From positions 4,680,001 to 4,712,000 of the forward strand of contig NZ_CP064923.1 in the NCBI RefSeq assembly GCF_018336915.1: DNA of 32,000 nucleotides, read 5' to 3'. The translations under genes and the position numbers were made by a program. Below the pieces are notes generated by a model. It was not told the origin of the DNA, made no database searches, and worked only from the letters and a program-made list of their open reading frames with translations. This document shows positions 1,399 to 29,576 of this stretch, in pieces. The DNA is from Acaryochloris marina S15 (GTDB taxonomy: Bacteria > Cyanobacteriota > Cyanobacteriia > Thermosynechococcales > Thermosynechococcaceae). How positions within the stretch are numbered: the first letter of the stretch is position 1; every line of letters starts with the position of its first letter.

Positions 1399-3066
1399 TT
1401 ACTGTAATGCTTTGAGATAAGAGGTCATTAGTTGGTAATTGGTCTGATCTTTTTGAGATTGGTAGAAGGCTACCGCTTTTTGGATATCGGCAAATGCTCG
1501 CTGGGGTTGTGCAAACACTTCAGCTAGGAGCGAGCCACGCAGACGATAGGCATTGCCGTCATTGGGATTTCTACGGATCGCTGCATCTGCTTGGGCGAGA
1601 ACGGCGCGACTATTAGGAAAGGCGGCTTGCACATTTTCTTGTACAGCATAGCGTTGAGCCAAGTTGGGATTCGTACTTCTTAACATGCTTTTAGCCAGGA
1701 TAAATTGGGCGAGTTGTTGCTGCTTAAGAGCGATGGCTGAGGCATTCTGAAAGTCTAAGGCAGCACCCTTGGCATCTTGGAGCTGAAGTCGAATGGCCGC
1801 ACTAGATAAGAAATGAGCAAAGGTGTCGGTGCCGGACTGTAATTTTTTAAGTACTGTCAAGCCTTGTTCAATTTTTTTAGCCCCTAGGATGTTGCCTTGG
1901 GATCGCATCAATTTCGCTGTCTGCTGCAGATCTGCCACTGCCCCTGGATAGTCTGCCTGCAAAAACTTGATCGTGCTGCGCAGTCCATAGCCAGATGGAT
2001 GCTGAGGATTTAATCTCAAACCTTGACTAGCATCCGCCAAAGCCCCATCCAATTCACCAATCCTACTGCGCACCAAACCACGGACCACATAGGCTTGCGC
2101 ATTGTCCGGGTCGAGACGAATAGCTTGTTCGCTGTCCGCTAGGGAACTGGATGCTTGGGCCAGCCTGGCATGGGCAAATCCCCGTGCAGAATAGGCTGCG
2201 GAATAATCAGGCTTGAGCTGGATAGCTTGATCGAGATCTGCGATCGCACCTTTGTAGTCTTCTTGCTGAATTTTGGCTTGGGCTTGTAGATACCAGTCAT
2301 CGGCAGTGGTTTGGGAAGGGGGCACTTGAGGTGATGGGGCTTCTACGCCAATATTGATGCCTGCTTGGGGAGCCAAAGTTGTAAACGTATTGATGGGAAT
2401 GCCTAAATTAAATCCGCTCTTAATGTAGATATCAGGATTGAGATTTTGATCCTGAGCTTTGGAAGTGGTATCAGCCCGCCCGTGAATTCCAATTAACTTA
2501 CCGTCGGCATCTAAGACAGGACCGCCACTCATACCGGGTAAGGTGTTGTTGGAATAGACCAAAGCATAGCCATCTGTTAAGGGGCGGCTGGCATTGGCGG
2601 TAATTTTACCTTCCGTAAAGTTATAGATGGTTTCAGAAATAGCTAGGGTACGCAGTGGGAAACCCGCAACATAGCTGCGAGTTCCTTCGGTGACAGAGCC
2701 AGAGCTGCCGATCTCCAGGGCCTGATAGGTGTTGGGACTCTGGAATTGCAGAATCGCCAGGTCAACCCCCGACAACCTTTTGATAGTCTTGGCATTGACT
2801 GCGACCGTCTGACCATCCGGTGTAATCACATCGTAACTATCTTCGGTGGCCACTACATGGGCGGCAGTAAGGACGGTATAGGTGTTGTTATCCCGCTGAA
2901 TAATGACCCCTGACCCCGAGGTCTGACTGACAATCCGAATCGTTGTGCTTTTGGCGAGCTGGTTAATTTCTGGAGCTGTCAGTGCCACTGCGGCAGGAGA
3001 CACAAGACAAATCAGAGGTAGGCTGGAGCCCAATAGGCTGACGTATCTCAGGGTAGACCAATACAT
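1399..3066 (-). CDS. Secreted trypsin-like (S1/S1C) serine protease fused to C-terminal TPR repeats
   Basis: N-terminal hydrophobic signal. Catalytic triad contexts are TAAHVV (His), DLAILQF (Asp) and GMSGGPV (Ser). The C-terminal half has repeated A-x-x-D-x-x-x-A-I-x-L-x-P TPR-like units. Confidence 0.85.
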   Translation of the reverse strand: MYWSTLRYVSLLGSSLPLICLVSPAAVALTAPEINQLAKSTTIRIVSQTSGSGVIIQRDNNTYTVLTAAHVVATEDSYDVITPDGQTVAVNAKTIKRLSGVDLAILQFQSPNTYQALEIGSSGSVTEGTRSYVAGFPLRTLAISETIYNFTEGKITANASRPLTDGYALVYSNNTLPGMSGGPVLDADGKLIGIHGRADTTSKAQDQNLNPDIYIKSGFNLGIPINTFTTLAPQAGINIGVEAPSPQVPPSQTTADDWYLQAQAKIQQEDYKGAIADLDQAIQLKPDYSAAYSARGFAHARLAQASSSLADSEQAIRLDPDNAQAYVVRGLVRSRIGELDGALADASQGLRLNPQHPSGYGLRSTIKFLQADYPGAVADLQQTAKLMRSQGNILGAKKIEQGLTVLKKLQSGTDTFAHFLSSAAIRLQLQDAKGAALDFQNASAIALKQQQLAQFILAKSMLRSTNPNLAQRYAVQENVQAAFPNSRAVLAQADAAIRRNPNDGNAYRLRGSLLAEVFAQPQRAFADIQKAVAFYQSQKDQTNYQLMTSYLKALQ

Positions 3067-16490: not shown

Positions 16491-16832
16491 ATGAAAACCT
16501 CAGGTCGTCAAAGCTATTTTTATCAACAAATTTATCAGTTAGTACGCAAAATTCCCTCAGGGAAAGTCGCCACCTATGGCCAAATTGCGGAATTATTAGG
16601 CAAGCCCCGTCATGCCCGCCAGATTGGTTATGCCCTGTATCGAGTGGCACCGGATTCAGATATTCCTTGGCAGCGGGTCGTAAATGCTCAGGGTATGATT
16701 TCTCATTCTCCCCAACGCCAGGGAAGCGATGACCTGCAACGCATTTTGCTGGAGCAAGAAGGCGTCACCTTCAATAGCCAAGACAAACTGGATCTGCGCT
16801 GCTATCGGTGGCAGCCGAACGTACTAGAGTGA
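16491..16832 (+). CDS. MGMT-family DNA-binding protein, alkyltransferase-like (ATL) type
   Basis: IPSGKVATYGQIA...ARQIGYAL...IPWQRVVNAQG. The canonical PCHRV active-site Cys is replaced by Trp (PWQRV), as in ATL proteins. The 3' end overlaps the convergent permease gene by 9 nt. Confidence 0.8.
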   Translation: MKTSGRQSYFYQQIYQLVRKIPSGKVATYGQIAELLGKPRHARQIGYALYRVAPDSDIPWQRVVNAQGMISHSPQRQGSDDLQRILLEQEGVTFNSQDKLDLRCYRWQPNVLE

Positions 16833-18011
16833 GCCTCTGGGGTCCAAGACATCTCGCAGCGTGTCACCTAAGAGATTAAAGGACAGCACCGTCAAGATAA
16901 TCAAAACGGCAGGAGGCCACACCAACCAGGGCTGCAAAATCAAGATAGAGGCATTGGTCGATAAAGATAGTAAGTTGCCCCAAGAGGGATCAGGCTGCTC
17001 AATTCCTAGACCAATTAGGCTCAACACTGATTCCGCCACGATAAAACTAGGAATGGCTAGGGTCGCGGAAATAATCACATAGGTAGCCGTTTGGGGGAGG
17101 ACATGGCGGGTAATGATATACAGCGGCTTCGCTCCCATCACCTTGGCAGCCTGGATAAACTCCTGCTCCTTAATCGACAAGACCTGACCTCGAATAACTC
17201 GGGCCAGTCCTGCCCAACCCACAAACGAAGTAATTAAAACAATCAGCAAGAAGCGCTCACTACTGGATAATCCTGGCGGCAAAATAGCAGCCAGCGCCAC
17301 CAGTAAATACAGTCCAGGAATGGTCATCAAGACTTCCGCGAAGCGCATCAAGATGGCATCCACCCATCCCCCGAAATACCCAGAGATGCCCCCCACTAGC
17401 ATCCCCAAGGGCAGGGAAATAGCAACGCCCACCAAACCAATGCTGAGACTAATACGCCCCCCAAAGAGGAGGCGGCTCAATTGGTCACGGGCCTGATCAT
17501 CAGTCCCCAAGACATTGAGGTAGCCAGGGCCAGTAGTGCCAAACAAGTGACGATTAAAGGCAAAACCTGGGAAGACGGTGACCTGATCAATTTTGGGGTC
17601 AGACCAGGAAAATTGAGTGGGCAAGGGCAGCTTCAGTTGCAGAAACTGATAATCCCAGCCTTTGACAAAAAGGCGAAGGGGAGACGGTTGAGTCCGATCG
17701 ACTTGTAAATCACGGATGCCGGTCTGCCAGGCTTTGGATTCCTTATTGCGCCAGTCAATAGGTTCGAGGGTGGTGGGATAGACATGGGGGCCAATCCATT
17801 GGCCATCGTCATTGTTCCAATAAATCTGGGTGGGCGGTAATAAGGCTCCATTTACTTGGGGCTGGCAGGCTCCAGTATTAATGGTTTCCGTGTCGCAGGG
17901 GGCATAGGGGGCAACAAAGTCTGCGCCGATCACTAGTACATAGAAGGTAATCAGAATCGCAGCCCCAAATCGAGCCAACTTTTTCTGGCGAAGCTGTTGC
18001 CACCAACTCAT
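16824..18011 (-). CDS. ABC transporter permease (oligopeptide/dipeptide OppC/DppC type)
   Basis: 395 aa with an N-terminal TM helix and a large periplasmic insert. A binding-protein-dependent permease core follows (GTDDQARDQLSRLLFGGRISL; EQEFIQAAKVMGAKPLYIITRHVLP, an EAA-like loop). Confidence 0.85.
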   Translation of the reverse strand: MSWWQQLRQKKLARFGAAILITFYVLVIGADFVAPYAPCDTETINTGACQPQVNGALLPPTQIYWNNDDGQWIGPHVYPTTLEPIDWRNKESKAWQTGIRDLQVDRTQPSPLRLFVKGWDYQFLQLKLPLPTQFSWSDPKIDQVTVFPGFAFNRHLFGTTGPGYLNVLGTDDQARDQLSRLLFGGRISLSIGLVGVAISLPLGMLVGGISGYFGGWVDAILMRFAEVLMTIPGLYLLVALAAILPPGLSSSERFLLIVLITSFVGWAGLARVIRGQVLSIKEQEFIQAAKVMGAKPLYIITRHVLPQTATYVIISATLAIPSFIVAESVLSLIGLGIEQPDPSWGNLLSLSTNASILILQPWLVWPPAVLIILTVLSFNLLGDTLRDVLDPRGSL

Positions 18012-18198: not shown

Positions 18199-19305
18199 TT
18201 ATTGCATTGTGACCATGCTCAGTTCCTCTGCTAATGCTAGAGTCTCTGCTACATACTCAGAGTAGTAAGTATTTCTATTCCGTTGATCAAATTGTTCTGC
18301 TAATGCGATCGCATGTTGGTTGAACCAAGCTTGTAACCCATCCAGGTCATAACACCCGTCTACTTGCCACAAGGCAAAATCTTGAGGTAACCGAGCTTTA
18401 ATAGAGCGACGCCCCGCACAGATCAATTGTTGGGTTAGGAGGTGGCAAGCCGCATAAAAATGTAGCTGGTTCAGAGGAATGGAACTCTTAAGCGCCATGG
18501 GTAGATGGCGCTCTAGCAGTGTCACTGCTCGCTCTAAATTACCGATCACGGATAAGTAGATAATGTGAATGCCATGTTCCTTCACAAAGTTGGGATTCTG
18601 GGCAATGCGCTGATACCCCAGGCGATGGAACTCTTGAGCCTCCGCTAACTTGTTCAGACGCAGGGCAGGAAGAAGCAGCACCGCATAGGTCAAATGTGGA
18701 ACTTCAGCACAACGCTTTCCACCAGACAGTATCGGTTCTGCATATTCAAAGGCATCTTCTAGACGACCAAGATGAGTGAGCACGATGACTGACTCGTTAA
18801 TATCACAGGCATGGCAATCCGACACGGTATCACGAGCTTGGAGCGGCCACTCCTGGTAGGCTAGTGCAGCTTCAGACAAATGTCCCATTACGGCATACCC
18901 CGCTGCTTTTCGTTGATAGTAAACACGTGAGCTGTAGCCCGCTGCCTGAAAGCGTCTTCCCAAGTCTTCCAATAGCTCATCAAACTGTGCCAGGCTAATA
19001 CCAGGACACTCACTACAGGCTGCAACTATCCACTTATACATCCACAATAGATGACGCAAATCAAAGCGATTGGGATTGGCATCTGCTTGAGCTAGACACC
19101 AGGCAAATGCGGGGATAGATAAGTCTGGCCGACCGCGAAAAGCACTGCAGCTGATTAGTTCTTCACGGGCTGCGTACCCTCGGTCTAGATCATTGATCTG
19201 ATCTGCTAGGGCAATGGCCTGTTTTGCCAGAGAAATTTTTAGAGACCCTTTGGGTTGGTTGGTACATTCATAGAGCAGCTCATCAATCTGTTCAGTCATA
19301 CTCAT
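18199..19305 (-). CDS. Hypothetical all-helical (TPR-like) Cys-rich protein, operon partner of the HSP90 paralog
   Basis: 368-aa ORF that starts 2 nt after the HSP90-family stop (TAG-CT-ATG at 19303-19310). It has helical-repeat character and several Cys, including SDCHACD. I recognise no family. Confidence 0.6.
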   Translation of the reverse strand: MSMTEQIDELLYECTNQPKGSLKISLAKQAIALADQINDLDRGYAAREELISCSAFRGRPDLSIPAFAWCLAQADANPNRFDLRHLLWMYKWIVAACSECPGISLAQFDELLEDLGRRFQAAGYSSRVYYQRKAAGYAVMGHLSEAALAYQEWPLQARDTVSDCHACDINESVIVLTHLGRLEDAFEYAEPILSGGKRCAEVPHLTYAVLLLPALRLNKLAEAQEFHRLGYQRIAQNPNFVKEHGIHIIYLSVIGNLERAVTLLERHLPMALKSSIPLNQLHFYAACHLLTQQLICAGRRSIKARLPQDFALWQVDGCYDLDGLQAWFNQHAIALAEQFDQRNRNTYYSEYVAETLALAEELSMVTMQ

Positions 19306-19307
19306 AG

Positions 19308-21146
19308 CTATTGCATTCCATTAAGACTGGCTAAATTCAAACTCATATCAATGAGACCCAGCAGCCCTTTATTCATTAGCTTGATTTCTCGGTGACCTAA
19401 AGGATACTGACCTAATAGCAAAGCTTGAACATAGAGCATCTGCACAACCCGCTCTTGCAGCGCTCGGTCTGGCAAGTCCACCATACGCAGAAACGTTTCA
19501 TTGTCGAAGTTAAAACAGAGTCGGGAGTGGGCTTGGAATTCAATGCCTTGGGCAATTCCATCTAGCACATTGGAAAATAAGTCATTGCTAATATCCTTAG
19601 TACGACTAATCGATCGCAAAGTTTCTGCGGCTTCATTTTGTAAATAGATAGCCGGAAGATCGACCGGTTTAAAGCGACGTGCTTCAGTTTGGACGCCAAA
19701 CGGTTGCAACACGACATCGGCTAAGCGCAAAAAGTCATGAACGCGATCTCGCTCTGTGAGGGACAGTTCTTCAAATGCTTCGCTCAACTCAGCCGGATCT
19801 ATGACTTCAAAAGAGATATCCGAGAAAAGAGCCGTGGCCCGGTCTAAGATTTCTGTATCGTGGGTATAGCCCGCATTAATCACCAACATGGACTGGGCTG
19901 TAGCAACACTAGCTATCTGGCGAAACCGATCAACCGTGTTCACGAAGCATACGGTTTGTCTATTTTCCCGGATCTCTTGGCCTGTCATCCTACCCAAGGA
20001 GGTTTCAAAGGGCAGCCAATTGAAGAAGAGGCGCAATAGATCATCATTCTCAACGGCAAGGGCTTTCAAGGCCGGATAATGCAAGGAGATTAACCGTTGG
20101 AGACGTGCTGAATCTGTCTCTGCCAACCCAATCAGATATTGCTTTAAGGCTTGCCCCAAAGCATTTCGAACCTGATCTAGATCTTCATTCTCGTAGAGGT
20201 CTTCACGGGATGCGGTGGGACGTAGCGTACGAGCATCGACCACACAGCGGACAAAAAAGGCCCAATCTGGCAGCAGTTTTTTGGATGCTTCTGAAACCAG
20301 CATGCCTTTGATATATACGCGATGGCTGGGAGTAGATCCAACCGTGCCACTATTCGCTAGGACATAAGCGACCCCCTCAACGCCTTCAGCAATGGAGGGT
20401 AAAGGGATAGCATCGAAAAATTTTTCGCCTAATAACCGTTCGCCATAGGCTAACGTTTCCTGACGCCATTGTTCATCGGTGCAGCCTTTGCGCCAGGGTG
20501 GAACATCATTCAAACCAATTGTTTTCTGGTTGGCTGATAACTCCAGCGCCATAGGCAATAGGCCACCATAGTGGCGAACCAATACCTCTAAAGATTTAAC
20601 GGACAGCAATTCTTGACACCCAGGTCGAGCCACCAAATACACTCGGGTCCCAGGCTTGAGATCTCGTTCCAGAGTGCGAACCTTGTAGGTGCCATCAGGT
20701 TTACCGCGCCATTCGACTGGCGGTGCTTCTGGATGACGAGCTGATTTTGTAACAATGGCAATTTCTTCACTGACCATAAAGCAGCTCAATAAGCCAATCC
20801 CAAACTGGCCGATAAAGGTGCTTCTTTGCTCAGACAGTTCGCCTCGCTTGGAGCTTTTACCAATCGTAGCTAGGAATTCATGAACTTCGGCCTCGGTCAA
20901 ACCTACGCCATCATCTTCGACCATGAGGGTGGGTGTACCATCTTCACTATCCACGACTTCAATCAGGACGCGGCCCAAATGGTTAGGCTGAATTAGCCGC
21001 CGGGCTTCTATGGCATCAACCGCATTTTGAAGCAGTTCTCGGATATAGACCCGTGGGTCACTATAAAGGTGGTTAGAAAGAAGTTCAATCATGCCCCCCA
21101 GATTGACCTGGAAGCAGTGTTCTTGTGCTGCTTGGGAATGAATCAT
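19308..21146 (-). CDS. HSP90-family protein (non-canonical HtpG paralog, GHKL ATPase)
   Basis: Motifs: LYSDPRVYIRELLQNAVDA (Hsp90 motif ELxxNAxDA), VEDDGVGLT (DxGxG) and FIGQFGIGLLSCFMV (GQFGxG). At 612 aa it is divergent outside the N-domain. Confidence 0.85.
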   Translation of the reverse strand: MIHSQAAQEHCFQVNLGGMIELLSNHLYSDPRVYIRELLQNAVDAIEARRLIQPNHLGRVLIEVVDSEDGTPTLMVEDDGVGLTEAEVHEFLATIGKSSKRGELSEQRSTFIGQFGIGLLSCFMVSEEIAIVTKSARHPEAPPVEWRGKPDGTYKVRTLERDLKPGTRVYLVARPGCQELLSVKSLEVLVRHYGGLLPMALELSANQKTIGLNDVPPWRKGCTDEQWRQETLAYGERLLGEKFFDAIPLPSIAEGVEGVAYVLANSGTVGSTPSHRVYIKGMLVSEASKKLLPDWAFFVRCVVDARTLRPTASREDLYENEDLDQVRNALGQALKQYLIGLAETDSARLQRLISLHYPALKALAVENDDLLRLFFNWLPFETSLGRMTGQEIRENRQTVCFVNTVDRFRQIASVATAQSMLVINAGYTHDTEILDRATALFSDISFEVIDPAELSEAFEELSLTERDRVHDFLRLADVVLQPFGVQTEARRFKPVDLPAIYLQNEAAETLRSISRTKDISNDLFSNVLDGIAQGIEFQAHSRLCFNFDNETFLRMVDLPDRALQERVVQMLYVQALLLGQYPLGHREIKLMNKGLLGLIDMSLNLASLNGMQ

Positions 21147-21450
21147 ATGAATTGCTTCGATGAGCTAGAGAAATGACGAATGCTGACAATGATGCTTTTT
21201 CTGATATGGGTCGAATCCCTTGAAAAAGCCAACTTATCTCAATCAAAGAAAGAAAAAATGCAATATTAGACTTTTCAAACGACAATCCATCTATAGATAA
21301 GATTTATCGCTGAATCACAAAGAATTAGTAGCGCAGGCTATAGCCTATAATGCCCCAATAATAGGGAGATACGAACAAAAACTCTCAAGAGAGAATTTTT
21401 TCAAGGTAGGCTTTGAGCACAACTCCTTTTCTTTAACAAATTTCCAACCC

Positions 21451-21678
21451 TCAAAAGCTTTGATTAGTGAAATGATGGTGGATTTTTCTGCCCCATTTTT
21501 TTATCAAGGTAGCAGCGATATCCACCATATTGGGGTCAAACGTGCTGATATAGCTTGTTAAACCTTCATCTAAAGGCTGTGAACTGAGTTGAGAAAGGAT
21601 TATCTCAGAATTGTCTTGCGTAGATAGAGTCTCTAGCAAATAGGCTTGAAAATCAGCGAGGTCTTGCTCTGGCATCAT
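21451..21678 (-). CDS. Small (75 aa) partner protein of the MNIO enzyme (function unknown; possibly MbnC/DUF2063-N-like)
   Basis: ATG 21678 overlaps the MNIO TGA (ATGATG at 21673-21678). The sequence begins MMPEQDLADFQAYLLETLSTQDN... The track ORF (21451-21822) extends 148 nt into the MNIO gene, so I prefer the coupled start. Confidence 0.5.
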   Translation of the reverse strand: MMPEQDLADFQAYLLETLSTQDNSEIILSQLSSQPLDEGLTSYISTFDPNMVDIAATLIKKWGRKIHHHFTNQSF

Positions 21679-22553
21679 TCCCCTCCTGCTTCCGCAGCGT
21701 GAGAAACGTGATTTATGATCTGCCGAATATGGGCAAAGTCTCGTCGAAATTGAAGTTGCTCTTGCTTGGAGTTCAGCGTATTGCCCATACGTTCCAAAAT
21801 AACGGTTTCGACCTGGGGACACTGTTGAAGGGCCAGTTTTAAGAGTTCAAAGACTGGCTCTGGAACCGCCTGATCATGGGTATCACGTCGAATCGTTGCC
21901 GTGCCATGGTGACTCCAGGATCCACCCGACAGGTGAAGTTCTCGTACTCTTTCGAGGGGATAGAGGCTGAAGATTTCTGTGGCTGAGAGCTGAAAGTTGT
22001 GCATTTGGCAGTAGAGATTATGCAAATCCAGCAGGAGAAAGCCATCTACGGGGTCTAAGAGCTGATCTAGGAACTCGCCTTGTTGACGGACATCTTGGAG
22101 GCCAAAGGCAAAGGCGAGGTTTTCTAAGCCGATGGGCACTTGGGCGATATCTGCGAATTTCTGGATGCGATCGCATCCCAGTTTCAGGGTCTCTGGCAGT
22201 AGAGGCATCGGCAACGGCGCACTGCGAGCAAAATTCCGAGTCGCCATCCAGCCAAAATGCTCGGAGATATGCCGATAGGAATAGTCCAGACATTCTGCCT
22301 GCAGACAAGCCAACCAGTGTCGCCGATCCAGTTGAGCAGACAGTAGCGAGTAGCTTACCCCATGCCCTAACAGTCCATTTCCCTGGCTAAACTGCCGCAA
22401 AACAGAACACAACAGATCGGGCAGTACCACACCCCCCCAACCCATATCAAAGCTCCACTCCACCACGTCTATCTCATCCGCATCAAAGAGAGGCTGAGCC
22501 GCCTGCCAAAAGTTAGGCTGAGGCATCAAGGATAGACCAAGCTGAGGCGTCAT
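21675..22553 (-). CDS. DUF692 / MNIO (multinuclear non-heme iron oxidative) family enzyme
   Basis: By-eye alignment to MbnB-type landmarks gives ISEHFGW, PIGLENLAF, LLDLHNLYC, ELHLSGGSW, RRDTHDQAV and VILERM. Preferred start is ATG 22553, which overlaps the precursor stop (TAATG). The track start is 22577. Confidence 0.85.
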   Translation of the reverse strand: MTPQLGLSLMPQPNFWQAAQPLFDADEIDVVEWSFDMGWGGVVLPDLLCSVLRQFSQGNGLLGHGVSYSLLSAQLDRRHWLACLQAECLDYSYRHISEHFGWMATRNFARSAPLPMPLLPETLKLGCDRIQKFADIAQVPIGLENLAFAFGLQDVRQQGEFLDQLLDPVDGFLLLDLHNLYCQMHNFQLSATEIFSLYPLERVRELHLSGGSWSHHGTATIRRDTHDQAVPEPVFELLKLALQQCPQVETVILERMGNTLNSKQEQLQFRRDFAHIRQIINHVSHAAEAGGE

Positions 22554-22840
22554 TAGCCCATGCCGCAAGGGGGACAAGGCTCATGGGGAAGCTGGCGTGG
22601 ATCAAAGGGGGCGTGGGGTTGCATTCCCGGAGTTAGAGTCTCGGGAACAGGTTCAGCTTCAGTGACTAAAGTGGGCTGAGTGCTGGGTGTTTCAGGTTTT
22701 GCCCCTGACACCGCTGGTTCGGGTTCAACAGTGGCAGACTGAAACCACCATTGATTGGCAGCAGGACGCGCCTGAACAGCCAGAGAGACCAAAGAGAGTA
22801 AAAATGCCGTCAAACCAGCGGTGACAGAGAACTTTTTCAT
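22553..22840 (-). CDS. Candidate RiPP precursor: Sec signal peptide, Pro/Glu/Thr-rich spacer, C-terminal CPPCGMG
   Basis: From ATG 22840 the sequence reads MKKFSVTAGLTAFLLSLVSLAVQA/RPAAN...PRQLPHEPCPPCGMG-stop, 95 aa. The track start at 22855 is a TTG. The only two Cys lie in the last 7 residues. The stop overlaps the MNIO start. Confidence 0.65.
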   Translation of the reverse strand: MKKFSVTAGLTAFLLSLVSLAVQARPAANQWWFQSATVEPEPAVSGAKPETPSTQPTLVTEAEPVPETLTPGMQPHAPFDPRQLPHEPCPPCGMG

Positions 22841-22976
22841 GGGAGACTGGGCCAAAGTTATTGAGATGACTCCATGCTAAGCAATGAATCAGGCTTGCAG
22901 TCCCTGGTTTCAATTTTTGCAACTCATAGGTCTGCCCTCGTGATCAGTCTGGCATCCCATCGAATTCCCTATGGTT

Positions 22977-23837
22977 CTAGTAATGAAAAGGAATGGTCAA
23001 CAAAGGTGCAGCCGTCACTAATAAGCCACTCCATGTCCATGAATAGGCAGGGAGAGCCGTCTCACTCGGGGCAAGCAAGGCGTCTATCCGCTCTGATAAT
23101 CGATGGCCCGTTGCCGTCTGCATGGCAGCACAAATACTCTCCGAAAAGTCTGCAGGAGAGGGATTAACCATCAACAGCAAGGATTCTGCCAACACCAACG
23201 GATCGACTTGCTGGGCGGCCCACTGGTCGGCTCGTAATTCTCGAAGCAGCAAGAGTTCTTGCCAAAGTTCTGTGGAATGGGGCAGCCAATCCGTCAGCCG
23301 CCGGAGCCATCCCCACCAGAAAAACCAAAACGTATCGCGATACTGTTGATGGGCTTGTTCGTGCACAAGGACTGATGTCAGTTGCTCTGCAGATAGAGTC
23401 TGCAATAACCCCTGGGTGATGACTAATTCAGACTGCCAAAAACCCACCTGAGCTGCATAAGGTAAGACATGATCAACCTGGTAGGCCCAATGGCCTTGAA
23501 TCTGAGTTTGAGGGCAAGCATGAATGCGCTGTAAGCTAGCCCAACCTTCGATGATGAGCCTGAGGTTGAGGCCAACTGCCATACCCACAAAACCAATGGC
23601 TAAGCCATAACTCCACCAACCTTCCTGGACCCAAACCATATGGCCTTGAGGTCCCATCCATAACACTGCGATCGCAGTCATTAACAACAACAACGGTGAC
23701 CATAAAAAGACTAACAAATTACCCTGCCATCGCTTTGCCCAAGTCCACTGATTTCTCTTGGCTTTCAGCCATCGATAGCCATAGGTTCGACAAAGCCAGA
23801 CCAGGGACAAGGCGCTGAGGATCATGAACAAATGCAT
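22977..23837 (-). CDS. M56-family (BlaR1-like) membrane metalloprotease, PetP-like
   Basis: 286 aa with about 4 TM helices and HExxH in LVHEQAHQQYRD. The start overlaps the stop of the upstream BlaI-like gene (TAATG at 23835-23839). Confidence 0.8.
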   Translation of the reverse strand: MHLFMILSALSLVWLCRTYGYRWLKAKRNQWTWAKRWQGNLLVFLWSPLLLLMTAIAVLWMGPQGHMVWVQEGWWSYGLAIGFVGMAVGLNLRLIIEGWASLQRIHACPQTQIQGHWAYQVDHVLPYAAQVGFWQSELVITQGLLQTLSAEQLTSVLVHEQAHQQYRDTFWFFWWGWLRRLTDWLPHSTELWQELLLLRELRADQWAAQQVDPLVLAESLLLMVNPSPADFSESICAAMQTATGHRLSERIDALLAPSETALPAYSWTWSGLLVTAAPLLTIPFHY

Positions 23838-24256
23838 TACTGTTCCTCCCTGGCTTTACGAGCGGCCCGTATCTTATCTGCGATCGCTTCTATCTGCTCG
23901 ATGCTGGCCTGATCAAGGTGATCGGCAAAAGCAGCAACGGTATCAGGATTTCCCACTGCTAAAAACTGCTGAAGCTGGTCATAGGCCCAAAGGGAGTTGG
24001 CCTGTTCTCGCGAGACCAGAGGACGCCATACAAAGCTACGGTTTTGCTTATCGCAAGCCAACCAGCCCTTTTTAGTGAGGCGATTGAGGACAGTGGTGAC
24101 GGAGGTATAGGCCAATTCGCGATCGGGGTTGGCCAAAATCTGATCATGAACCTGTTTGACGGTGGCAGTCCCCAAATCCCAAATCAAATTGAGAATTTCG
24201 AATTCTAAGGGACCGAGAGAAAGCTGCTTGGGACGAAAGTCAGGGAGCGATGCCAT
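23837..24256 (-). CDS. BlaI/MecI/CopY-family winged-helix transcriptional repressor, PetR-like
   Basis: LGPLEFEILNLIWDLGTATVKQVHDQI...AYTSVTTVLNRLTKKGWLACDKQNRSFVWRPLVSREQ. Preferred start is ATG 24256 (139 aa). The track start 24310 adds 18 non-conserved-looking residues. Confidence 0.85.
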   Translation of the reverse strand: MASLPDFRPKQLSLGPLEFEILNLIWDLGTATVKQVHDQILANPDRELAYTSVTTVLNRLTKKGWLACDKQNRSFVWRPLVSREQANSLWAYDQLQQFLAVGNPDTVAAFADHLDQASIEQIEAIADKIRAARKAREEQ

Positions 24257-24271
24257 AGTGCTTGATATAAA

Positions 24272-24399
24272 AGACCTTATCGGAAATAAAATGGGTGAGA
24301 ATAACTTCAAACGTCTATGTCGTAAGTCTTTGAGGTCGATTTTTCTCCAAAAATAAAACGCTTTCCCAGTAAGGCTTCCAGCTATTTCCGATAAGGTCT
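24272..24399. repeat. Perfect 17-bp inverted repeat (AGACCTTATCGGAAATA / TATTTCCGATAAGGTCT) with a 94-bp spacer
   Basis: The arms at 24272-24288 and 24383-24399 are exact reverse complements, checked base by base. The left arm lies 16-32 nt upstream of the preferred start of the BlaI-like gene. Confidence 0.85.
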
Positions 24400-24479
24400 A
24401 AAGGTAAAAAAGTCTGACAAGCCAGGTAAACGTATCAATCGTTTGATAATTCTATAGGCATGAAATTTTTTTCAAAAAG

Positions 24480-25301
24480 CTAGTCTATAGGTTTTTCTAC
24501 CTCTTCAAGCTGCTTAAGACTTTTCAAAAAAGACAAAGATAATTGAAATGACTTGATTCGAGATTGCCCAATTGAAAAGTAATAAGATTGAATTATCAAA
24601 ACAACAAAAAGAAGATATGGAATAGCCCTCTGTATTTCTTCAGATTTCATGATATCAATATTAGGGAATCTAAAAACAAAGTAAATTGTAAGTACAATAA
24701 AAATTGCCACAAAAATCGATGCTTTTTGTAGCAATTTTTGCCGACTTTTCATGATTTCTATTGACTCTTCAAATCTTACAACAACAATATCTATGCATAA
24801 AATTCTTGTGTTTATACTTGATGCATTCGATTCCCATGCAAGAGAAGTCATAGGATTTTGATATTTATGAGTATTGTACATATTTTTCAATCTTTCTTTT
24901 ATAAGGAAAATATGTTCCTCATAAGTCTCATAAGCTTGAAAGCTATCAACCACCCATCGCAATACCAACAAAAACAGATAAATGGCTGCTAAGGATATTG
25001 CAAGCAAGCAAATGAAAGCAAAAAATTTCCTGAATTCCAAAAACGGGTTGGCTAATGCTATAGACAATGAAATAAAAAATATTACAAAATAAGTAATAGA
25101 CCTCCGCCTGAAGTCTTTTTGGCTTAAATGCATAAATGCCAGTCTTATTTTTTGCATAAATAAATCTATGCAAAAATTTATTTTATTATCCTTTTTATCT
25201 TCCTCTTCCTCTTCCTTATATTGGTAAGACTTAAAATCCTTATCAATAAGATCAAATAGTATTTCTAACTCTTCCGTAAACAGAGATTCTTCACAATTCA
25301 T
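24480..25301 (-). CDS. Hypothetical 4-TM membrane protein in an AT-rich insert
   Basis: 273 aa. It has an acidic N-terminus (EEEEEDKKD), two TM hairpins (ITYFVIFFISLSIALANPFL / FFAFICLLAISLAAIYLFLLVL and ASIFVAIFIVLTIYFVF / AIPYLLFVVLIIQSYYFSIG) and helical linkers. Codon usage is strongly AT-biased compared with the neighbours. Confidence 0.55.
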   Translation of the reverse strand: MNCEESLFTEELEILFDLIDKDFKSYQYKEEEEEDKKDNKINFCIDLFMQKIRLAFMHLSQKDFRRRSITYFVIFFISLSIALANPFLEFRKFFAFICLLAISLAAIYLFLLVLRWVVDSFQAYETYEEHIFLIKERLKNMYNTHKYQNPMTSLAWESNASSINTRILCIDIVVVRFEESIEIMKSRQKLLQKASIFVAIFIVLTIYFVFRFPNIDIMKSEEIQRAIPYLLFVVLIIQSYYFSIGQSRIKSFQLSLSFLKSLKQLEEVEKPID

Positions 25302-25838
25302 TCAAAATTATATTACCTATAATACAAGCTTACTTCTTTACTAGATCTATTACATAATTCAGCTAATGATATGTAGAGGATTAAAAATCCAAGTCAGATC
25401 GTAGCATTTACATTTATTGAGTAAATAACACATCATGAAACGAATATTGCAAAAAATCTACTAACTATATTGGAGTTGGAATCATTATTCAATGATTCTT
25501 ATATACAAAATCCTGAGATAAGAATAAGACGAAATTCTACCGTTATTCAAGATTCTCAGAGTCATTGAAAAATTTTAGTCAGAATATATTTAACGACTTG
25601 ATTATTTGGCATCTTCATGAGACCAATCATCATTAAGATTATGTGGCTAATCGAATTTCATAAATATTACTTGCGATCGTATTGTATATACTGCTGTTCA
25701 TATTTTACTAGAGTAATTTACGATTATTTTGCAATCACGATACTAGAAAAAACTTGCCGCATCAACTTCCAAGACAATCAGTCCAACACCATATTATCTC
25801 AATGGAATATCAACACAGACATTGACTATCACTCTAAT

Positions 25839-26399
25839 CTATTTAATTGCCGTCAAAACCATGTCTACATCTCGAATTAAATTGCTATAGACTTCACTTT
25901 CTTTCAGCAGTAGCTTTTCATCAGAGACATGGTTGGGATACCGCTCAACCCAGACTTCACTGGGAGTGTAGGAACAATGCGTCAACTCAAAATCGACATC
26001 TAAATACAGTGCTAGCAGGGTAAAAGCTTTTCCACTTTCCTGCCATTCTCGATTGAGCCGTTTCGAGAACATACTCAATCCTACAGGTGTGATCGGACGA
26101 ACATGGGTTGGGTCATGAAAGAAACGATCACTGCGATGATGGGGCACTGTAATATGCACCGTCGCTTTTGGCTGGCAAACACGGTAGAGTTCCTGGATTA
26201 TTTTCAAATAAACGTCGGTTTGCTGGCCCAGATGCTCTAAAACATGGTGTAATTCAATTTCAGAAACACTGTTATCCTCCCAAGGATAAGGAAACGTCTC
26301 TAGGTCAAAGCGCACATCAGGCGTGCCAAACCGATCAACATTGATATAACCAGCCAACTGTTTAGCACCGCATCCCAGATTGAGTCGCAAATCTGCCAT
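25839..26399 (-). CDS. Class I SAM-dependent methyltransferase (Methyltransf_11/23-like)
   Basis: Motif I LNLGCG, a later HHVLEHL motif, 186 aa. Confidence 0.75.
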   Translation of the reverse strand: MADLRLNLGCGAKQLAGYINVDRFGTPDVRFDLETFPYPWEDNSVSEIELHHVLEHLGQQTDVYLKIIQELYRVCQPKATVHITVPHHRSDRFFHDPTHVRPITPVGLSMFSKRLNREWQESGKAFTLLALYLDVDFELTHCSYTPSEVWVERYPNHVSDEKLLLKESEVYSNLIRDVDMVLTAIK

Positions 26400-26545
26400 T
26401 TTTGAGAATCTCCCTAGGAGAATGACATAGTAAGACTTCTCACACGATACGCGCTACCCAAAAACAAGGTAGTAATGAAGCGACCCATTGCGAAATTGAC
26501 GCTGCTGCTCTGGCTTGCTAGACTCAAGCCCTATGGAGCTTTTAG

Positions 26546-27136: not shown

Positions 27137-27313
27137 GTATCCCCATTCCCTGAGATATGGTTGCAAGCAGGGCGTAGATGCTCAATACGACAGGTTGTCT
27201 TTTGACTTTTCCAGAAAGGGTCGCTCAGGATAGATTGGGCAAATTATTTGCTAGTAAAATTGCAGGTTGGTTTTGACTTGCGATCGCATTTCTATTCTCT
27301 GGGGAATCTGGTT

Positions 27314-27799
27314 ATGACTTCTGTTCGAAGATGGGCTTTACTGGCCACTTATATAAGCGTTGGGGTATTGGTGACACCCCGAATCGTGCAATCCCACCAT
27401 ACTCAACCCCAAACCATTTCATCAGCCGATCAGAGCCAAACCCAACATCACCACCACAAACAACTAGAAATTTCTGCCAATCAAGCCACCCCCACCGTTG
27501 AGTTAGTCGTTCATCCCGATCAGGTCCAAGGCTGGAATCTAGAACTAAAAGTCACTAATTTCAACTTTGCCCCAGCTCAAGTCAACGCTGCCAGCAAAAC
27601 TTCTGAAGGCCATGCCCACTTATATATCAATGATAAAAAAGTAACTCGCCTCTACGGCAACTGGTATTACCTCTCTGAGTTACCATCTGGCTCTAACACT
27701 CTCAAAGTCACCCTCAACAGTAACGGGCATGAATCCCTCGTCCATCGAGGACAGCCCATCAGCGACACTGAAGTGATTCAGGTTGCGCCCCAGCCTTAA
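27314..27799 (+). CDS. Secreted His-rich protein (DUF4399-like GHxHLYI motif)
   Basis: Preferred start is ATG 27314 (MTSVRRWALLATYISVGVLVTP..., signal-like). It carries a QSHHTQ...QTQHHHHKQ His-rich tract and EGHAHLYINDKK. It is the first gene of a tight three-gene operon; the next ATG is 3 nt after its stop. Confidence 0.6.
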   Translation: MTSVRRWALLATYISVGVLVTPRIVQSHHTQPQTISSADQSQTQHHHHKQLEISANQATPTVELVVHPDQVQGWNLELKVTNFNFAPAQVNAASKTSEGHAHLYINDKKVTRLYGNWYYLSELPSGSNTLKVTLNSNGHESLVHRGQPISDTEVIQVAPQP

Positions 27800-27802
27800 G
27801 AA

Positions 27803-29023
27803 ATGCTAGACCTGTTGCTTGTCGCCGTCCTGGGATTTGTAGGCAGCTTTGGCCATTGCGTCGGTATGTGTGGACCATTAGCAGCCAGCTTTGCCTTGAC
27901 CTCAGGTGAATCCAGAACTTGGCAACAACAGCTGACGTTTCACTTTCTACTCAATCTAGGACGAATTTTGAGCTATGGCCTAATCGGGGCAGCCATTGGT
28001 GCCCTCAGTTCTGTCCTGGCTGTGGGTGGAGAACTAGCAGGTATCGATAGTATCCTGCGTCGGAGCATTGCTTTTTTGATGGGTATTTTGTTGATCTGGC
28101 TGGGAATTCGGCAAATTCGCCCCGACTGGTTACCTAAATTACCATTGCCACATCCATTACTGAAATTGGGGCTGCATGAGCGTTTCAACCGAGCCATGGT
28201 GGGGCTAGCTCATCATCCCCATTGGTGGACTCCTGCTTTGCTAGGCATGGTCTGGGGATTAATTCCCTGTGGCTTTCTGTATGCCGCCCAAATCAAAGCC
28301 GCTGCCACAGGGGACTTGTTACTAGGAAGTGCCACGATGCTATGTTTCGGTTTGGGAACGATGCCAACCTTATTAGGCGTCGGTTTTTCTACTGCCGTTC
28401 TCAGCCAGGATCGACGTAGCCAACTCTTTCAGGTAGGGGGCTGGCTGATGCTGATCATTGGGTTACTGACCGTCCTCAGAACTGGAGAGATGCAGGACTA
28501 CAGTAGCCATACCGCCTTGCTGTTATTGATGTTGGCCCTACTGGCCCGTCCCATCCAGCCTGTATGGTCGGCCCCACTGCACTATCGTCGGTTGTTAGGG
28601 GTCGGAGCTTTTGTGCTGTCGCTGATCCATGTATTGCGGGTTCTCGACCATTCTTTTCAGTGGTCTCTCACAGCCCTTCCCTTTATGCTGCCCCTCCATC
28701 AAGCGGGCCTCTGGGCAGGTATCGTTGCTTTGACCTTGCTCACTCCCTTAGCCACCACCAGTACCAACTGGATGGTTAAACGATTAGGCCCCCATTGGCG
28801 ACGGCTCCATCTCCTGAGTATCCCGGCTCTCCTCTTAGCAGGCGGCCATACTGTGATGATCGGATCCCATTATTTAGGGGGGCTGGAATGGACAGGCGTA
28901 CATTTAGGCAGGACCGTTGCGATCTCAACTACAATCCTCCTCGTCTTACTCCTGCGCTGCCGCTGGGTCTGGGCCTTGTTTTCACTAGAGAAATTTTATG
29001 GTGCGTCTTCTCCACTGCAGTAG
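27803..29023 (+). CDS. Fusion membrane protein: DsbD_2/UreH-like (HCxGMCGP) transmembrane domain plus C-terminal ferric-reductase-like (MsrQ/YedZ-type) heme-binding TM domain
   Basis: The N-terminus has GSFGHCVGMCGPL and a later WGLIPCGFLY, typical of the TauE/DsbD_2/UreH-like family. The C-terminal approx 160 aa have spaced His in TM helices (LSLIHVL, HWRRLHLLSIPALLLAGGHTVMIG). Confidence 0.65.
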   Translation: MLDLLLVAVLGFVGSFGHCVGMCGPLAASFALTSGESRTWQQQLTFHFLLNLGRILSYGLIGAAIGALSSVLAVGGELAGIDSILRRSIAFLMGILLIWLGIRQIRPDWLPKLPLPHPLLKLGLHERFNRAMVGLAHHPHWWTPALLGMVWGLIPCGFLYAAQIKAAATGDLLLGSATMLCFGLGTMPTLLGVGFSTAVLSQDRRSQLFQVGGWLMLIIGLLTVLRTGEMQDYSSHTALLLLMLALLARPIQPVWSAPLHYRRLLGVGAFVLSLIHVLRVLDHSFQWSLTALPFMLPLHQAGLWAGIVALTLLTPLATTSTNWMVKRLGPHWRRLHLLSIPALLLAGGHTVMIGSHYLGGLEWTGVHLGRTVAISTTILLVLLLRCRWVWALFSLEKFYGASSPLQ

Positions 29024-29576
29024 TTTAGCCATCTTAGCGATTGGGTTATGGAGCGGACCAGGACAGGCTCACACCGTCAAAGCCTCCGGATCCGTTGCGG
29101 TCACCTTCCACTTAGAACCCGATCACAACCCACGGGCGGGAGAACCTGCCCAAGTCTGGTTTGTCCTCACCCAAAAGGGAGGCCGCACGATTCCTCTCTC
29201 CCAATGCGATTGTAAATTTCAGGTCATTTCCGAGGAAAATGGGCAGGCGATTTCTCAACCTCCCTTAACCGCCATCTCCGCAGAGCAATACCAAAATATT
29301 CCGGGCGCTGATGTAACTTTTCCCAAACCGGGTGCTTACCAATTAAGCATTCAAGGCCAGCCGCAAACGGGTGACGCATTCCAACCGTTTCAGTTTAGTT
29401 TTCCAGTCACAGTCGCCAAGGGAAGCAACCCTCAACCGTCTTCTCCGGCCCAGCCGACAGATCCTCCCCAATCTTCATCGCAATCAGGTCTACCCAAGAT
29501 TGCATGGCTCAGCATTAGTATTGGCGCAGGACTCAGTCTGTTGATGCTGGTTCTTTGGCTACGCAAAAAACAGTAA
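28998..29576 (+). CDS. Secreted, C-terminally membrane-anchored beta-rich protein (YtkA/Ig-like)
   Basis: The signal MVRLLHCSSLAILAIGLWSGPGQA/HTVK would give a mature protein beginning with His. VTFHLEPDHNPRAGEPAQVWFVL is a beta-sandwich-like pattern. A Pro/Ser linker and the TM anchor IAWLSISIGAGLSLLMLVLWLRKKQ follow. It overlaps the upstream gene by 26 nt. Confidence 0.6.
   Translation: MVRLLHCSSLAILAIGLWSGPGQAHTVKASGSVAVTFHLEPDHNPRAGEPAQVWFVLTQKGGRTIPLSQCDCKFQVISEENGQAISQPPLTAISAEQYQNIPGADVTFPKPGAYQLSIQGQPQTGDAFQPFQFSFPVTVAKGSNPQPSSPAQPTDPPQSSSQSGLPKIAWLSISIGAGLSLLMLVLWLRKKQ

Follow-up and report, generated by a model that had tools for sequence, protein, structure and literature searches.

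The CPxCGxG motif is the published hallmark of the ChrH subfamily of MNIO (DUF692) enzymes (PMC10214503, PMC13056109). In the ChrA/ChrH(/ChrI) system of Chryseobacterium (PMC10214503) the substrate ChrA is secreted with a signal peptidase I (SPI)-type signal, and has its only two cysteine residues in a terminal CPxCGMG. ChrH is a single fused protein of the 363-aa type that S-methylates its product (+10 Da), and the cluster adds a DUF1772 membrane protein (ChrI), an epimerase and an M42 peptidase. DybA of the Bacteroidota DAG-RiPPs has a lipobox cysteine and is a triacylated lipoprotein, modified by the fused enzyme DybH (PMC13056109). In Cyanobacteriota the C-terminal domain of ChrH is a separate polypeptide, as in MelH/MelHc (PNAS 2026; PMC13056109, PMC12636315), where MelHc co-purifies with MelH and is needed for the -4 Da modification (PMC13056109, PMC12636315). 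The substrate MelA1, from Candidatus Melainabacteria SJ512, is a 34-kDa TPR protein dimer with an SPI signal and a C-terminal CPACGMG. The products of the characterised homologues contain a macrocycle and a hydantoin, with a single loss of 4 Da, a free thiol, and no heterocycle chromophore or UV-visible feature. The -4 Da product is unmethylated with MelH/MelHc, DybH, ChsH and HymH, ChrH gives an S-methylated product, and ArlH of Archangium gives a mixture.

Here we analyse a window of 32,000 nucleotides from Acaryochloris marina S15 that contains a compact three-gene module, very probably a chryseobasin-type RiPP operon in which a split enzyme carries out a ChrH-type reaction on CPPCGMG. The module most resembles the Mel system (PMC13056109, PMC12636315), with a catalytic MNIO and a separate small helical-bundle protein, an SPI-type signal and a C-terminal CPxCGMG on the substrate, no ChrI partner, and a host of the Cyanobacteriota lineage. 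It differs in that its substrate is a mostly disordered peptide of 95 aa ending in CPPCGMG, with a conserved DPR sequence upstream of the motif, and in that the host, Acaryochloris, is an oxygenic cyanobacterium. With the Chryseobacterium system it shares the MNIO subfamily, ChrH being its best NCBIfam match, and a precursor of similar size; its enzyme is split, however, and none of the additional Chryseobacterium genes was found beside the operon. The reaction motif is shared with DybA/DybH, and the same unmethylated macrocycle and hydantoin would be expected. Bufferins (BufA/BufB/BufC/DoxX) and methanobactins (MbnA/MbnB/MbnC) likewise have the MNIO superfamily fold and target cysteine, and bufferins also have Sec signal peptides. 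They belong to other MNIO subfamilies and precursor families, with a DUF2063 or MbnC partner in place of a detached ChrH domain, and their aromatic thiooxazole or oxazolone-thioamide chelators contrast with the macrocycle and hydantoin expected here.

Organization of the module

The three ORFs are co-directional on the minus strand, and re-reading of the sequence showed that each stop codon overlaps the next start. The ChrA-like precursor gene (22553-22840, minus strand) encodes 95 aa plus the stop and begins MKK. It is followed by ORF2 (21675-22553, minus strand; 292 aa), the TIM-barrel catalytic subunit of a ChrH-subfamily MNIO, and by ORF3 (21451-21678, minus strand; 75 aa), which corresponds to Hc, the helical bundle that ends ChrH-type enzymes, here detached, and is the equivalent of MelHc. 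The precursor TAA (22555-22553) and the MNIO ATG (22553-22551) have one base in common within TAATG at 22551-22555, and the MNIO TGA (21677-21675) overlaps ATGATG at 21678-21673, the start of the 75-aa ORF. The initial annotation had described this layout of three overlapping ORFs, and all its coordinates check out. The block is syntenic in the related loci L001, L010 and L038. A scan of 21000-24600 for promoters and terminators gave sites no more numerous than in shuffled sequence, and a search of the PLSDB plasmid collection gave no match.

The precursor peptide

Residues 1-24 (MKKFSVTAGLTAFLLSLVSLAVQA; 22769-22840, minus strand) form a predicted Sec signal peptide for signal peptidase I, a rule-based reading from hydropathy and the -3/-1 rule. 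The n-region is MKK, the hydrophobic core covers approximately residues 4-21 (Kyte-Doolittle up to 2.1), and the c-region ends AVQA/RP, with cleavage before RP; by the same rules the Sec signal suggested at the outset is present in all its parts. Residues 1-20 are identical across five Acaryochloris homologues; the homologues also do not vary at Q23-A27, the stretch that spans the predicted cleavage site. A spacer of 64 residues follows that contains no cysteine and is 62% P/E/T/Q/A. Cys 89 and 92 are the sole cysteine residues of the precursor, in agreement with an earlier description of a Cys-free spacer and two cysteines within the last seven residues. They belong to the core motif CPPCGMG (residues 89-95; 22556-22576, minus strand), the predicted site of MNIO modification, which matches the family CPxCGxG.

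Homologous precursors (85-94% identity) are confined to Acaryochloris and keep the motif, except for one (P0005) where it is lost via a frame change. For the precursor and ORF3, word-indexed protein searches found close Acaryochloris relatives only, and an exhaustive search with a genome scan reached further; Pfam and NCBIfam searches with the precursor gave no match. Comparison of precursors revealed a conserved DPR sequence (residues 80-82; 22595-22603, minus strand) six residues ahead of the first cysteine. DPR lies five or six residues ahead of this cysteine in 8 of 10 cyanobacterial precursors, namely that of the window, two copies each in L001 and L024, and those of L002, L010 and L037, and was absent at that position from the non-cyanobacterial precursors compared. 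DPR may mark where the precursor is recognised or processed. The precursor has no lipobox cysteine, there being none before residue 89 and the signal ending AVQA/RP, and therefore its product is not a member of the lipoprotein (DAG-RiPP) type. Precursors of the lipobox type occur in the Bacteroidota loci L013 and L014.

The MNIO enzyme and its subfamily

ORF2 matches PF05114 with E 5e-36 (125 bits, cut-off 25), so that both its proposed identity as a DUF692/MNIO protein and the assignment of the locus as an MNIO-dependent RiPP operon hold. Among the NCBIfam models it scores 332 bits with MNIO_ChrH (NF050165; E 5e-99, profile positions 2-288 of 363), 112 with BufB, 87 with HvfB, 46 with ApyH and 15 with MbnB. 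Judged on these comparisons ORF2 belongs to the ChrH (chryseobasin) subfamily, and the orthologue of Acaryochloris sp. CCMEE 5410 (WP_010467436.1) is already in the published ChrH-subfamily (SSN) table, taken here from the supplement of the preprint. The score is below the equivalog cut-off of 600 bits, both for ORF2 alone and for ORF2 joined to ORF3 (339 bits). However, fused ChrH-like enzymes from metagenomes reach only 296-357 bits, and relatives from other phyla, fused and split, lie in the range of ORF2. The cut-off thus appears to bound the close Chryseobacterium/Bacteroidota group and not the whole subfamily, the model apparently being tuned to Bacteroidota. As ORF2 is under 600 bits, the model does not certify that it performs the same reaction, although it probably does so.

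The sequences SEH, GLEN, DLHN, HLSGG, DTHD and ILER hold H99, E144, D176/H178/N179, H207, D224/H226 and E254 respectively. A comparison of 26 ChrH-like enzymes shows no variation at these ligand-type residues or at H64, so the landmarks pointed out initially are both present and general. At most ORF2 is ~43-44% identical to the Bacteroidota enzymes, ChrH included. The PDB contains no ChrH-type structure, the nearest by sequence being TglH and MbnB. An AlphaFold2 (AF2) model, calculated for an ORF2+ORF3 pseudo-fusion with an alignment of 36 sequences, has a pLDDT of 89.6 (a single-sequence run gave 35) and contains a TIM barrel for which TglH and MbnB are the best fold matches in the PDB.

ORF3 as a detached domain of ChrH

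ORF3 encodes, as a gene of its own, the helical bundle found at the C-terminus of ChrH. When it is concatenated with ORF2, coverage of the ChrH profile extends over positions 2-360 of 363. A profile made from 15 standalone Hc proteins matches fused enzymes over their final ~60 residues, with E values from 4e-18 to 9e-7. Exhaustive phmmer searching with ORF3 recovered 74 representatives, among them the C-termini of ChrH-type MNIOs of 370-390 aa, and natural fusions of 368 aa align with 61% identity across 96-97% of ORF2+ORF3. Split and fused forms of the enzyme were mapped over 28 loci. In the AF2 model ORF3 forms four helices, with pLDDT mostly 83-93; the last helix and the junction are lower, at 66-69. 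ORF3 had been proposed to be an MbnC/DUF2063-like partner, an identity that the profile, phmmer, fusion alignments and model replace with the detached ChrH domain; neither family was matched, and ORF3 alone gave no match in Pfam or NCBIfam even at E 10.

Conservation of the CxxCGxG motif

In each of 28 ChrH-like loci from other genomes an ORF ending CxxCGxG adjoins the enzyme, so that on this comparison the pairing of precursor and enzyme is not due to chance. The ORF is immediately upstream of the enzyme and ends CPxCGxG in 23 of the loci, with the variant termini CAACGTG, CRACGMG, CYGCGRG, CYGCGMG and CIACGMG in the other five. CPPCGMG itself is also natural in L001, and CPPCGRG or CPPCGLG occurs in L007, L024 and L025. 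The retention of the motif in all these loci bears out the expectation that the C-terminal cysteine pair of a signal-bearing substrate is a conserved modification site.

Genomic neighbourhood

Directly upstream of the precursor gene, across 136 bp (22841-22976), is that of a BlaR1-like membrane zinc protease (22977-23837, minus strand), which contains HEQAH and has weak Pfam M48/M56 matches. Its start overlaps by one base the end of the gene for a BlaI/CopY-family repressor (23837-24256, minus strand; PF03965, E 1e-29), which encodes 139 aa when read from its ATG; as listed, the repressor ORF reaches back to a TTG at 24310. The pair is also found in L010, L027 and L038. In L010 and L038 the protease gene adjoins the module in the same direction, and in L027 it is 3.5 kb away on the opposite strand; it was absent from the other cyanobacterial loci compared. 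The protease is a conserved neighbour within Acaryochloris, and any functional link to the module is putative.

The downstream HSP90-family gene and a 368-aa ORF were considered as members of the cluster and rejected; neither occurs in any related locus, and in the syntenic L038 an OppC-like permease directly follows Hc. Nor is there a conserved cyanobacterial neighbourhood, the flanks being variable (FUR, STAS, GT2, PGM, MFS, GAPDH and a beta-lactamase-family protein). The OppC-like permease of the window lies beyond the HSP90-family gene and the 368-aa ORF.

Expected chemistry

The gene layout, family assignments, split of the enzyme and conservation of the motif come from the present analysis; the reaction proposed below, its dependence on Hc and the sequence of steps are modelled on published work on the homologues. 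The 95-aa precursor would be made in the cytoplasm, where a heterodimer of ORF2, an iron-containing TIM barrel, and ORF3 would bind the C-terminal CPPCGMG. Using O2, the enzyme would perform a single four-electron oxidation that cross-links both cysteines in a small macrocycle of the thioether type and converts the backbone at the terminal Gly-Met-Gly, by rearrangement, to an imidazolidinedione (hydantoin). One thiol would stay, the total change would be -4 Da, and S-methylation is most likely absent. The modified peptide would then be exported by Sec and cut by signal peptidase I after AVQA, releasing a largely disordered peptide of 71 residues with a modified C-terminus into the periplasm or extracellular space, with possible further trimming at the conserved DPR. 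For DybH the motif alone suffices, and the DybA A46P mutant, which has CPPCGMG, is modified with a change of -4 Da and loss of one thiol (PMC13056109); this sole test of CPPCGMG used a Bacteroidota enzyme, not a split cyanobacterial one.

Discussion

The locus had been put forward as a candidate new class of metallophore-type operon, and it was noted at the time that it differs from bufferin operons. The latter point stands. ORF2 scores 112 bits with BufB (NF050167, cut-off 310) and 14.7 with MbnB (TIGR04159, cut-off 325), Pfam and NCBIfam searches of the module proteins and neighbours found no DUF2282, DUF2063, DoxX or Buf_6/12Cys precursor, and NCBIfam gave no match to MbnC. The claim of novelty does not, given that ChrH is the best subfamily match, CPxCGxG is published and an Acaryochloris orthologue is already tabulated. 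What the locus holds is an uncharacterised version, in Acaryochloris, of a system described before; it is not a new class of copper-binding peptide.

A periplasmic copper chelator akin to bufferins or methanobactins, with each cysteine converted to a thiooxazole or oxazolone-thioamide and the 75-aa protein binding the substrate in the manner of MbnC or BufC, is nevertheless suggested by the MNIO nature of the enzyme, the signal peptide on its substrate, the BlaI/CopY-family repressor upstream with its weak match to CopY_TcrY (46 bits), and a FUR-family regulator ~2 kb from the Symplocastrum locus. We regard it as highly improbable. BufB, HvfB and MbnB score far under ChrH and under their own cut-offs, the repressor lacks a C-terminal CxC metal motif and is below the CopY_TcrY cut-off of 122 bits, and no neighbouring gene is conserved across cyanobacteria. 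Moreover the motif is that of ChrH, and when homologues modify CPxCGxG substrates, CPPCGMG among them, the change is a single -4 Da and a thiol is kept; by analogy the initial expectation of -4 Da per cysteine and two thiooxazole or thioamide chelators would not hold, and the product expected is a thioether macrocycle with a hydantoin, -4 Da in total and one thiol left. A metal-related function of another kind is conceivable, although this analysis found no support for one.

A ChrH-type reaction followed by SAM-dependent S-methylation, as in the chryseobasin of Chryseobacterium, would give a net +10 Da and no free thiol. As ChrH methylates and ArlH of the same family gives a mixture, methylation status is unpredictable from sequence. 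MelH/MelHc, the sole cyanobacterial-lineage split system tested, gives an unmethylated product, however, as do DybH, ChsH and HymH, and the limited identity of ORF2 to the Bacteroidota enzymes also makes methylation distinctly unlikely. A silent operon or one in decay, with inherited gene overlaps and no product, might be read from the frame change in P0005 and from the lack of convincing sites in the promoter and terminator scan. Against this all three ORFs are intact with invariant catalytic residues, other Acaryochloris strains keep the motif and the signal peptide, and synteny of the block is maintained in three further loci; we find such a remnant scarcely credible.

The chryseobasin-type reading carries little weight as new biology, because the subfamily, the split in Cyanobacteriota, the motif and the tolerance of CPPCGMG are published and an orthologue is catalogued. 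It is conceivable, though on balance unlikely when all its parts are taken jointly, that there is an oxygenic-cyanobacterial sub-class of chryseobasins with short Sec-exported Pro-rich precursors, cleavage at DPR, BlaI/BlaR1-like control in Acaryochloris and a defined extracytoplasmic role. If so, cleavage at DPR would free a macrocyclic peptide of ~13 residues, whose free-thiol macrocycle might bind metal or a pyrophosphate/lipid-II-like ligand, and this would be the first physiological function for the chryseobasin-type RiPP family. The value of the module lies in its being a small, natural set of three genes whose substrate is short and secreted and would carry a native Pro-Pro macrocycle, in an oxygenic cyanobacterium that can be cultured. 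It could help to show the purpose of chryseobasin-type modifications, and whether DPR and the BlaI/BlaR1-like pair act in processing or regulation. The tryptic fragment QLPHEPCPPCGMG of the precursor has a computed [M+H]+ of 1365.575 unmodified, 1375.559 if S-methylated, and 1361.544 if modified as predicted.

Assignment of the operon to the ChrH family

The operon belongs to the chryseobasin/ChrH family, as an uncharacterised example of the split form already known from cyanobacteria, and the analysis does not support the initial proposal of a new class of metallophore-type RiPPs. It comprises three tightly coupled minus-strand ORFs, identified by translation of the window sequence. These encode a ChrA-like precursor of 95 aa starting MKKFSV (22840 to 22553), an MNIO/DUF692 enzyme of 292 aa (ORF2, 22553 to 21675) and a protein of 75 aa (ORF3 or Hc) that starts within the ATGATG at 21673–21678 and ends at 21451. 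The precursor TAA and the ORF2 ATG share one base in TAATG (22551–22555), and the ORF2 TGA overlaps the ATGATG. The precursor begins with a basic n-region and a hydrophobic core, and its c-region, AVQA/RP, leads into a cysteine-free spacer of which 62% is Pro, Glu, Thr, Gln or Ala. Its only two cysteines lie inside the terminal CPPCGMG. The initial annotation had described these overlaps, the signal, the spacer and the cysteine positions correctly throughout. Predicted signal peptidase I cleavage gives a 71-residue peptide with a computed monoisotopic mass of 7621.63 Da when unmodified. The precursor, ORF2 and ORF3 form a self-contained module.

ORF2 was proposed to be a DUF692/MNIO enzyme with the ligand motifs of that family, and this is borne out. 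It matches Pfam PF05114 (MbnB_TglH_ChrH) with E = 5e-36, and H64, H99, E144, D176, H178, N179, H207, D224, H226 and E254 are invariant across 26 aligned ChrH-like enzymes, located within the motifs originally named. Judged by profile score, ORF2 clearly prefers ChrH among the NCBIfam MNIO subfamily models, with 332 bits (5e-99, profile positions 2–288 of 363) for MNIO_ChrH (NF050165), and 112, 87, 46 and 15 bits for BufB, HvfB, ApyH and MbnB respectively. This falls under the 600-bit equivalog cut-off of NF050165. Metagenomic fused ChrH-like enzymes score only 296–357 bits, so the cut-off marks a close Bacteroidota group rather than the subfamily.

ORF3 is a detached ChrH domain

For ORF3 the initial annotation had proposed an HMM search with DUF2063/MbnC. 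On its own the protein has no match among the Pfam or NCBIfam models; several findings identify it instead as the C-terminal domain of a ChrH-type enzyme, detached from the catalytic chain. On concatenation of ORF2 and ORF3 the end of the ChrH alignment moves from profile position 288 to 360 of 363. Across 28 ChrH-like loci from GTDB genomes the enzyme takes two forms. The short form (~282–299 aa) is followed by an ORF of 64–96 aa that overlaps or abuts the enzyme stop, and is found in Acaryochloris, Symplocastrum, Leptolyngbya, Chlamydiales, Omnitrophota, Verrucomicrobiota, Planctomycetota and some Acidimicrobiales. The long form (357–399 aa) has no small downstream ORF, and is found in Bacteroidota, Obscuribacteraceae, Polyangiaceae and other Acidimicrobiales. 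The long enzymes are matched over their final ~60 residues by a profile of 15 small ORFs (E from 4e-18 to 9e-7). Exhaustive phmmer searching of 1.8 billion representatives gave 74 ORF3 relatives at E ≤ 1e-3, the majority being proteins of 60–110 aa; the matches also include the C-termini of ChrH-type MNIOs of 370, 371 and 390 aa. Natural single-chain enzymes of 368 aa are 61% identical to the concatenation over 96–97% of its length, and one is preceded by a precursor that has a signal peptide and ends ...DPRYGIHDNCPACGMG. AlphaFold2 models the pseudo-fusion (36-sequence alignment; mean pLDDT 89.6, pTM 0.77) as a TIM barrel joined through a long helix to a four-helix unit from ORF3; the closest PDB folds to the model are TglH and MbnB.

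The window Hc carries a His-rich tail, KIHHHFTNQSF (21451–21480, minus strand), absent from the 64–70-aa Hc proteins of other strains. Other Acaryochloris homologues are mostly 66–67 aa.

Relation to characterised members and proposed mechanism

ChrA/ChrH was defined by Ayikpoe et al. 2023 (PMC10214503), where the C-terminal CPACGMG of ChrA is converted to a macrocycle with an imidazolidinedione, two thioaminals and an S-methyl group. According to later work (Chen, Zhu and van der Donk, preprint PMC12636315; PNAS 2026, PMC13056109), members of the subfamily occur in Bacteroidota, Cyanobacteriota, Myxococcota and Planctomycetota, and every one has an additional helical bundle at its C-terminus, which is a separate polypeptide in Cyanobacteriota. 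Modification requires MelHc, which binds to MelH. CPxCGxG is common to the precursors, and the seven-residue motif is by itself enough for recognition; ChrA and MelA1 have signals of the signal-peptidase-I type. For most homologues the product is unmethylated (−4 Da), keeps one thiol free and shows no chromophore in the UV-visible range, and a CPPCGMG mutant retains cyclisation. Members in Supplementary Table 2 of the preprint include an A. thomasi protein and WP_010467436.1 from Acaryochloris sp. CCMEE 5410, a strain that also has homologues of the window precursor and ORF3.

The assignments of the genes themselves come from the present sequence analysis. By extrapolation from these homologues, which supply the chemistry, the Hc dependence and the order of events, an ORF2/ORF3 heterodimer would modify the CPPCGMG tail before export, in the cytoplasm. 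A single four-electron oxidation would yield a macrocycle and a hydantoin (−4 Da) and leave one of the thiols. Sec export would follow, with signal peptidase I freeing the 71-residue peptide. The predicted native Pro-Pro macrocycle is apparently undiscussed in the literature consulted. The same appears true there of the DPR that cyanobacterial precursors conserve ahead of the motif and of the Acaryochloris-specific BlaI/BlaR1-like neighbours; each is a minor point.

Substrate motif and precursor diversity

Mining of genomes for cysteine-motif ORFs beside the enzyme, as the initial annotation suggested for cyanobacteria, finds an ORF ending CPxCG[MLRT]G immediately upstream in 23 of the 28 loci. 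The other five end CAACGTG, CRACGMG, CYGCGMG, CIACGMG or CYGCGRG, the last in an opposite-strand 269-aa protein of an Obscuribacteraceae MAG. A C-terminal CxxCGxG is thus universal in this set (28/28). CPPCGMG is kept in four close Acaryochloris precursor homologues, and a more distant Acaryochloris strain (L010) has CPACGMG. Natural CPPCG.G occurs also in Acaryochloris sp. IP29b (L001), an Akkermansiaceae MAG, an uncultured cyanobacterium and an Acidimicrobiales MAG. In one Acaryochloris-like precursor homologue from a Logan assembly (P0005, 117 aa) the sequence departs from the others beyond residue ~78 and the terminal CPPCGMG is missing, consistent with a frameshift through assembly error or a pseudogene.

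DPR lies 5–6 residues ahead of the first cysteine in 8/10 cyanobacterial ChrA-like precursors (the window, at 22595–22603 on the minus strand, and loci L001, L002, L010, L024 and L037), in the contexts DPRQLPHEPC, DPRQFPHDPC, DPRHTGGGC, DPRRSSQDPC, DPRQLSQEPC, DPRHSFHDNC, DPRYWAEYC and DPRYGIHDNC. None is present at the equivalent position in the non-cyanobacterial precursors compared. DPR could be where a protease acts, or else a recognition element.

L001 has a second, tandem precursor (1640–2005, plus strand) with no signal peptide, an extra CMFC pair near the N-terminus and the end DPRHTGGGCPACGMG; L024 has tandem precursors ending CPGCGMG and CPPCGRG. Among L008, L009, L011 and L019, some substrates are large proteins, namely Planctomycetota proteins of 255–292 aa ending CPGCGMG and the opposite-strand 269-aa protein of the Obscuribacteraceae MAG, and a Polyangiaceae precursor has an internal CPACGTG plus a terminal CPACGMG. 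Acidimicrobiia/Acidimicrobiales MAG precursors (L015, L016, L018, L020, L021, L022, L025 and L028) have Arg-Arg or Arg-rich N-terminal motifs followed by an Ala-rich hydrophobic stretch (e.g. SRRTLALMAAAGA, SRRALGLMAVAA); these N-termini look like Tat rather than Sec signals. Actinomycetota is not among the phyla named in the available part of the published subfamily survey.

Genomic neighbourhood

A BlaI-family repressor and a BlaR1-like M56/M48 protease precede the module in Acaryochloris (the window, L010 and the syntenic contig L038). In Leptolyngbya FACHB-8 such a pair lies 3.5 kb off on the other strand, and the remaining cyanobacterial loci have unrelated neighbours. A link to copper is not supported, since the repressor lacks a CopY-type cysteine motif and scores under the CopY cut-off. 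Downstream of Hc (18199–21146, minus strand) are an HSP90-family gene (NF010683, 734 bits) and an ORF of 368 aa that matches no family, separated by two bases (19305/19308). The pair is absent from every related locus compared. An OppC-like permease directly follows Hc in L038 and lies at 16824–18011 in the window; by comparison of gene order, the pair is a strain-specific insertion between them.

A low-GC island (24480–26400, 28–34% GC against ~50% around it) is probably a strain-specific acquisition. It holds a Lys/Ile/Phe-rich membrane-like ORF of 273 aa (24480–25301, minus strand), and a 186-aa ORF (25839–26399, minus strand) overlaps its edge; neither matches Pfam. L038 has a DUF4272 gene and a 143-aa gene at this position. 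Further along (27248–29576, plus strand), ORFs of 183 and 192 aa with no family match flank a protein (27803–29023) fusing DsbD_2, a cytochrome c biogenesis-type transmembrane region, to a ferric-reductase-like domain. This arrangement is conserved in L038.
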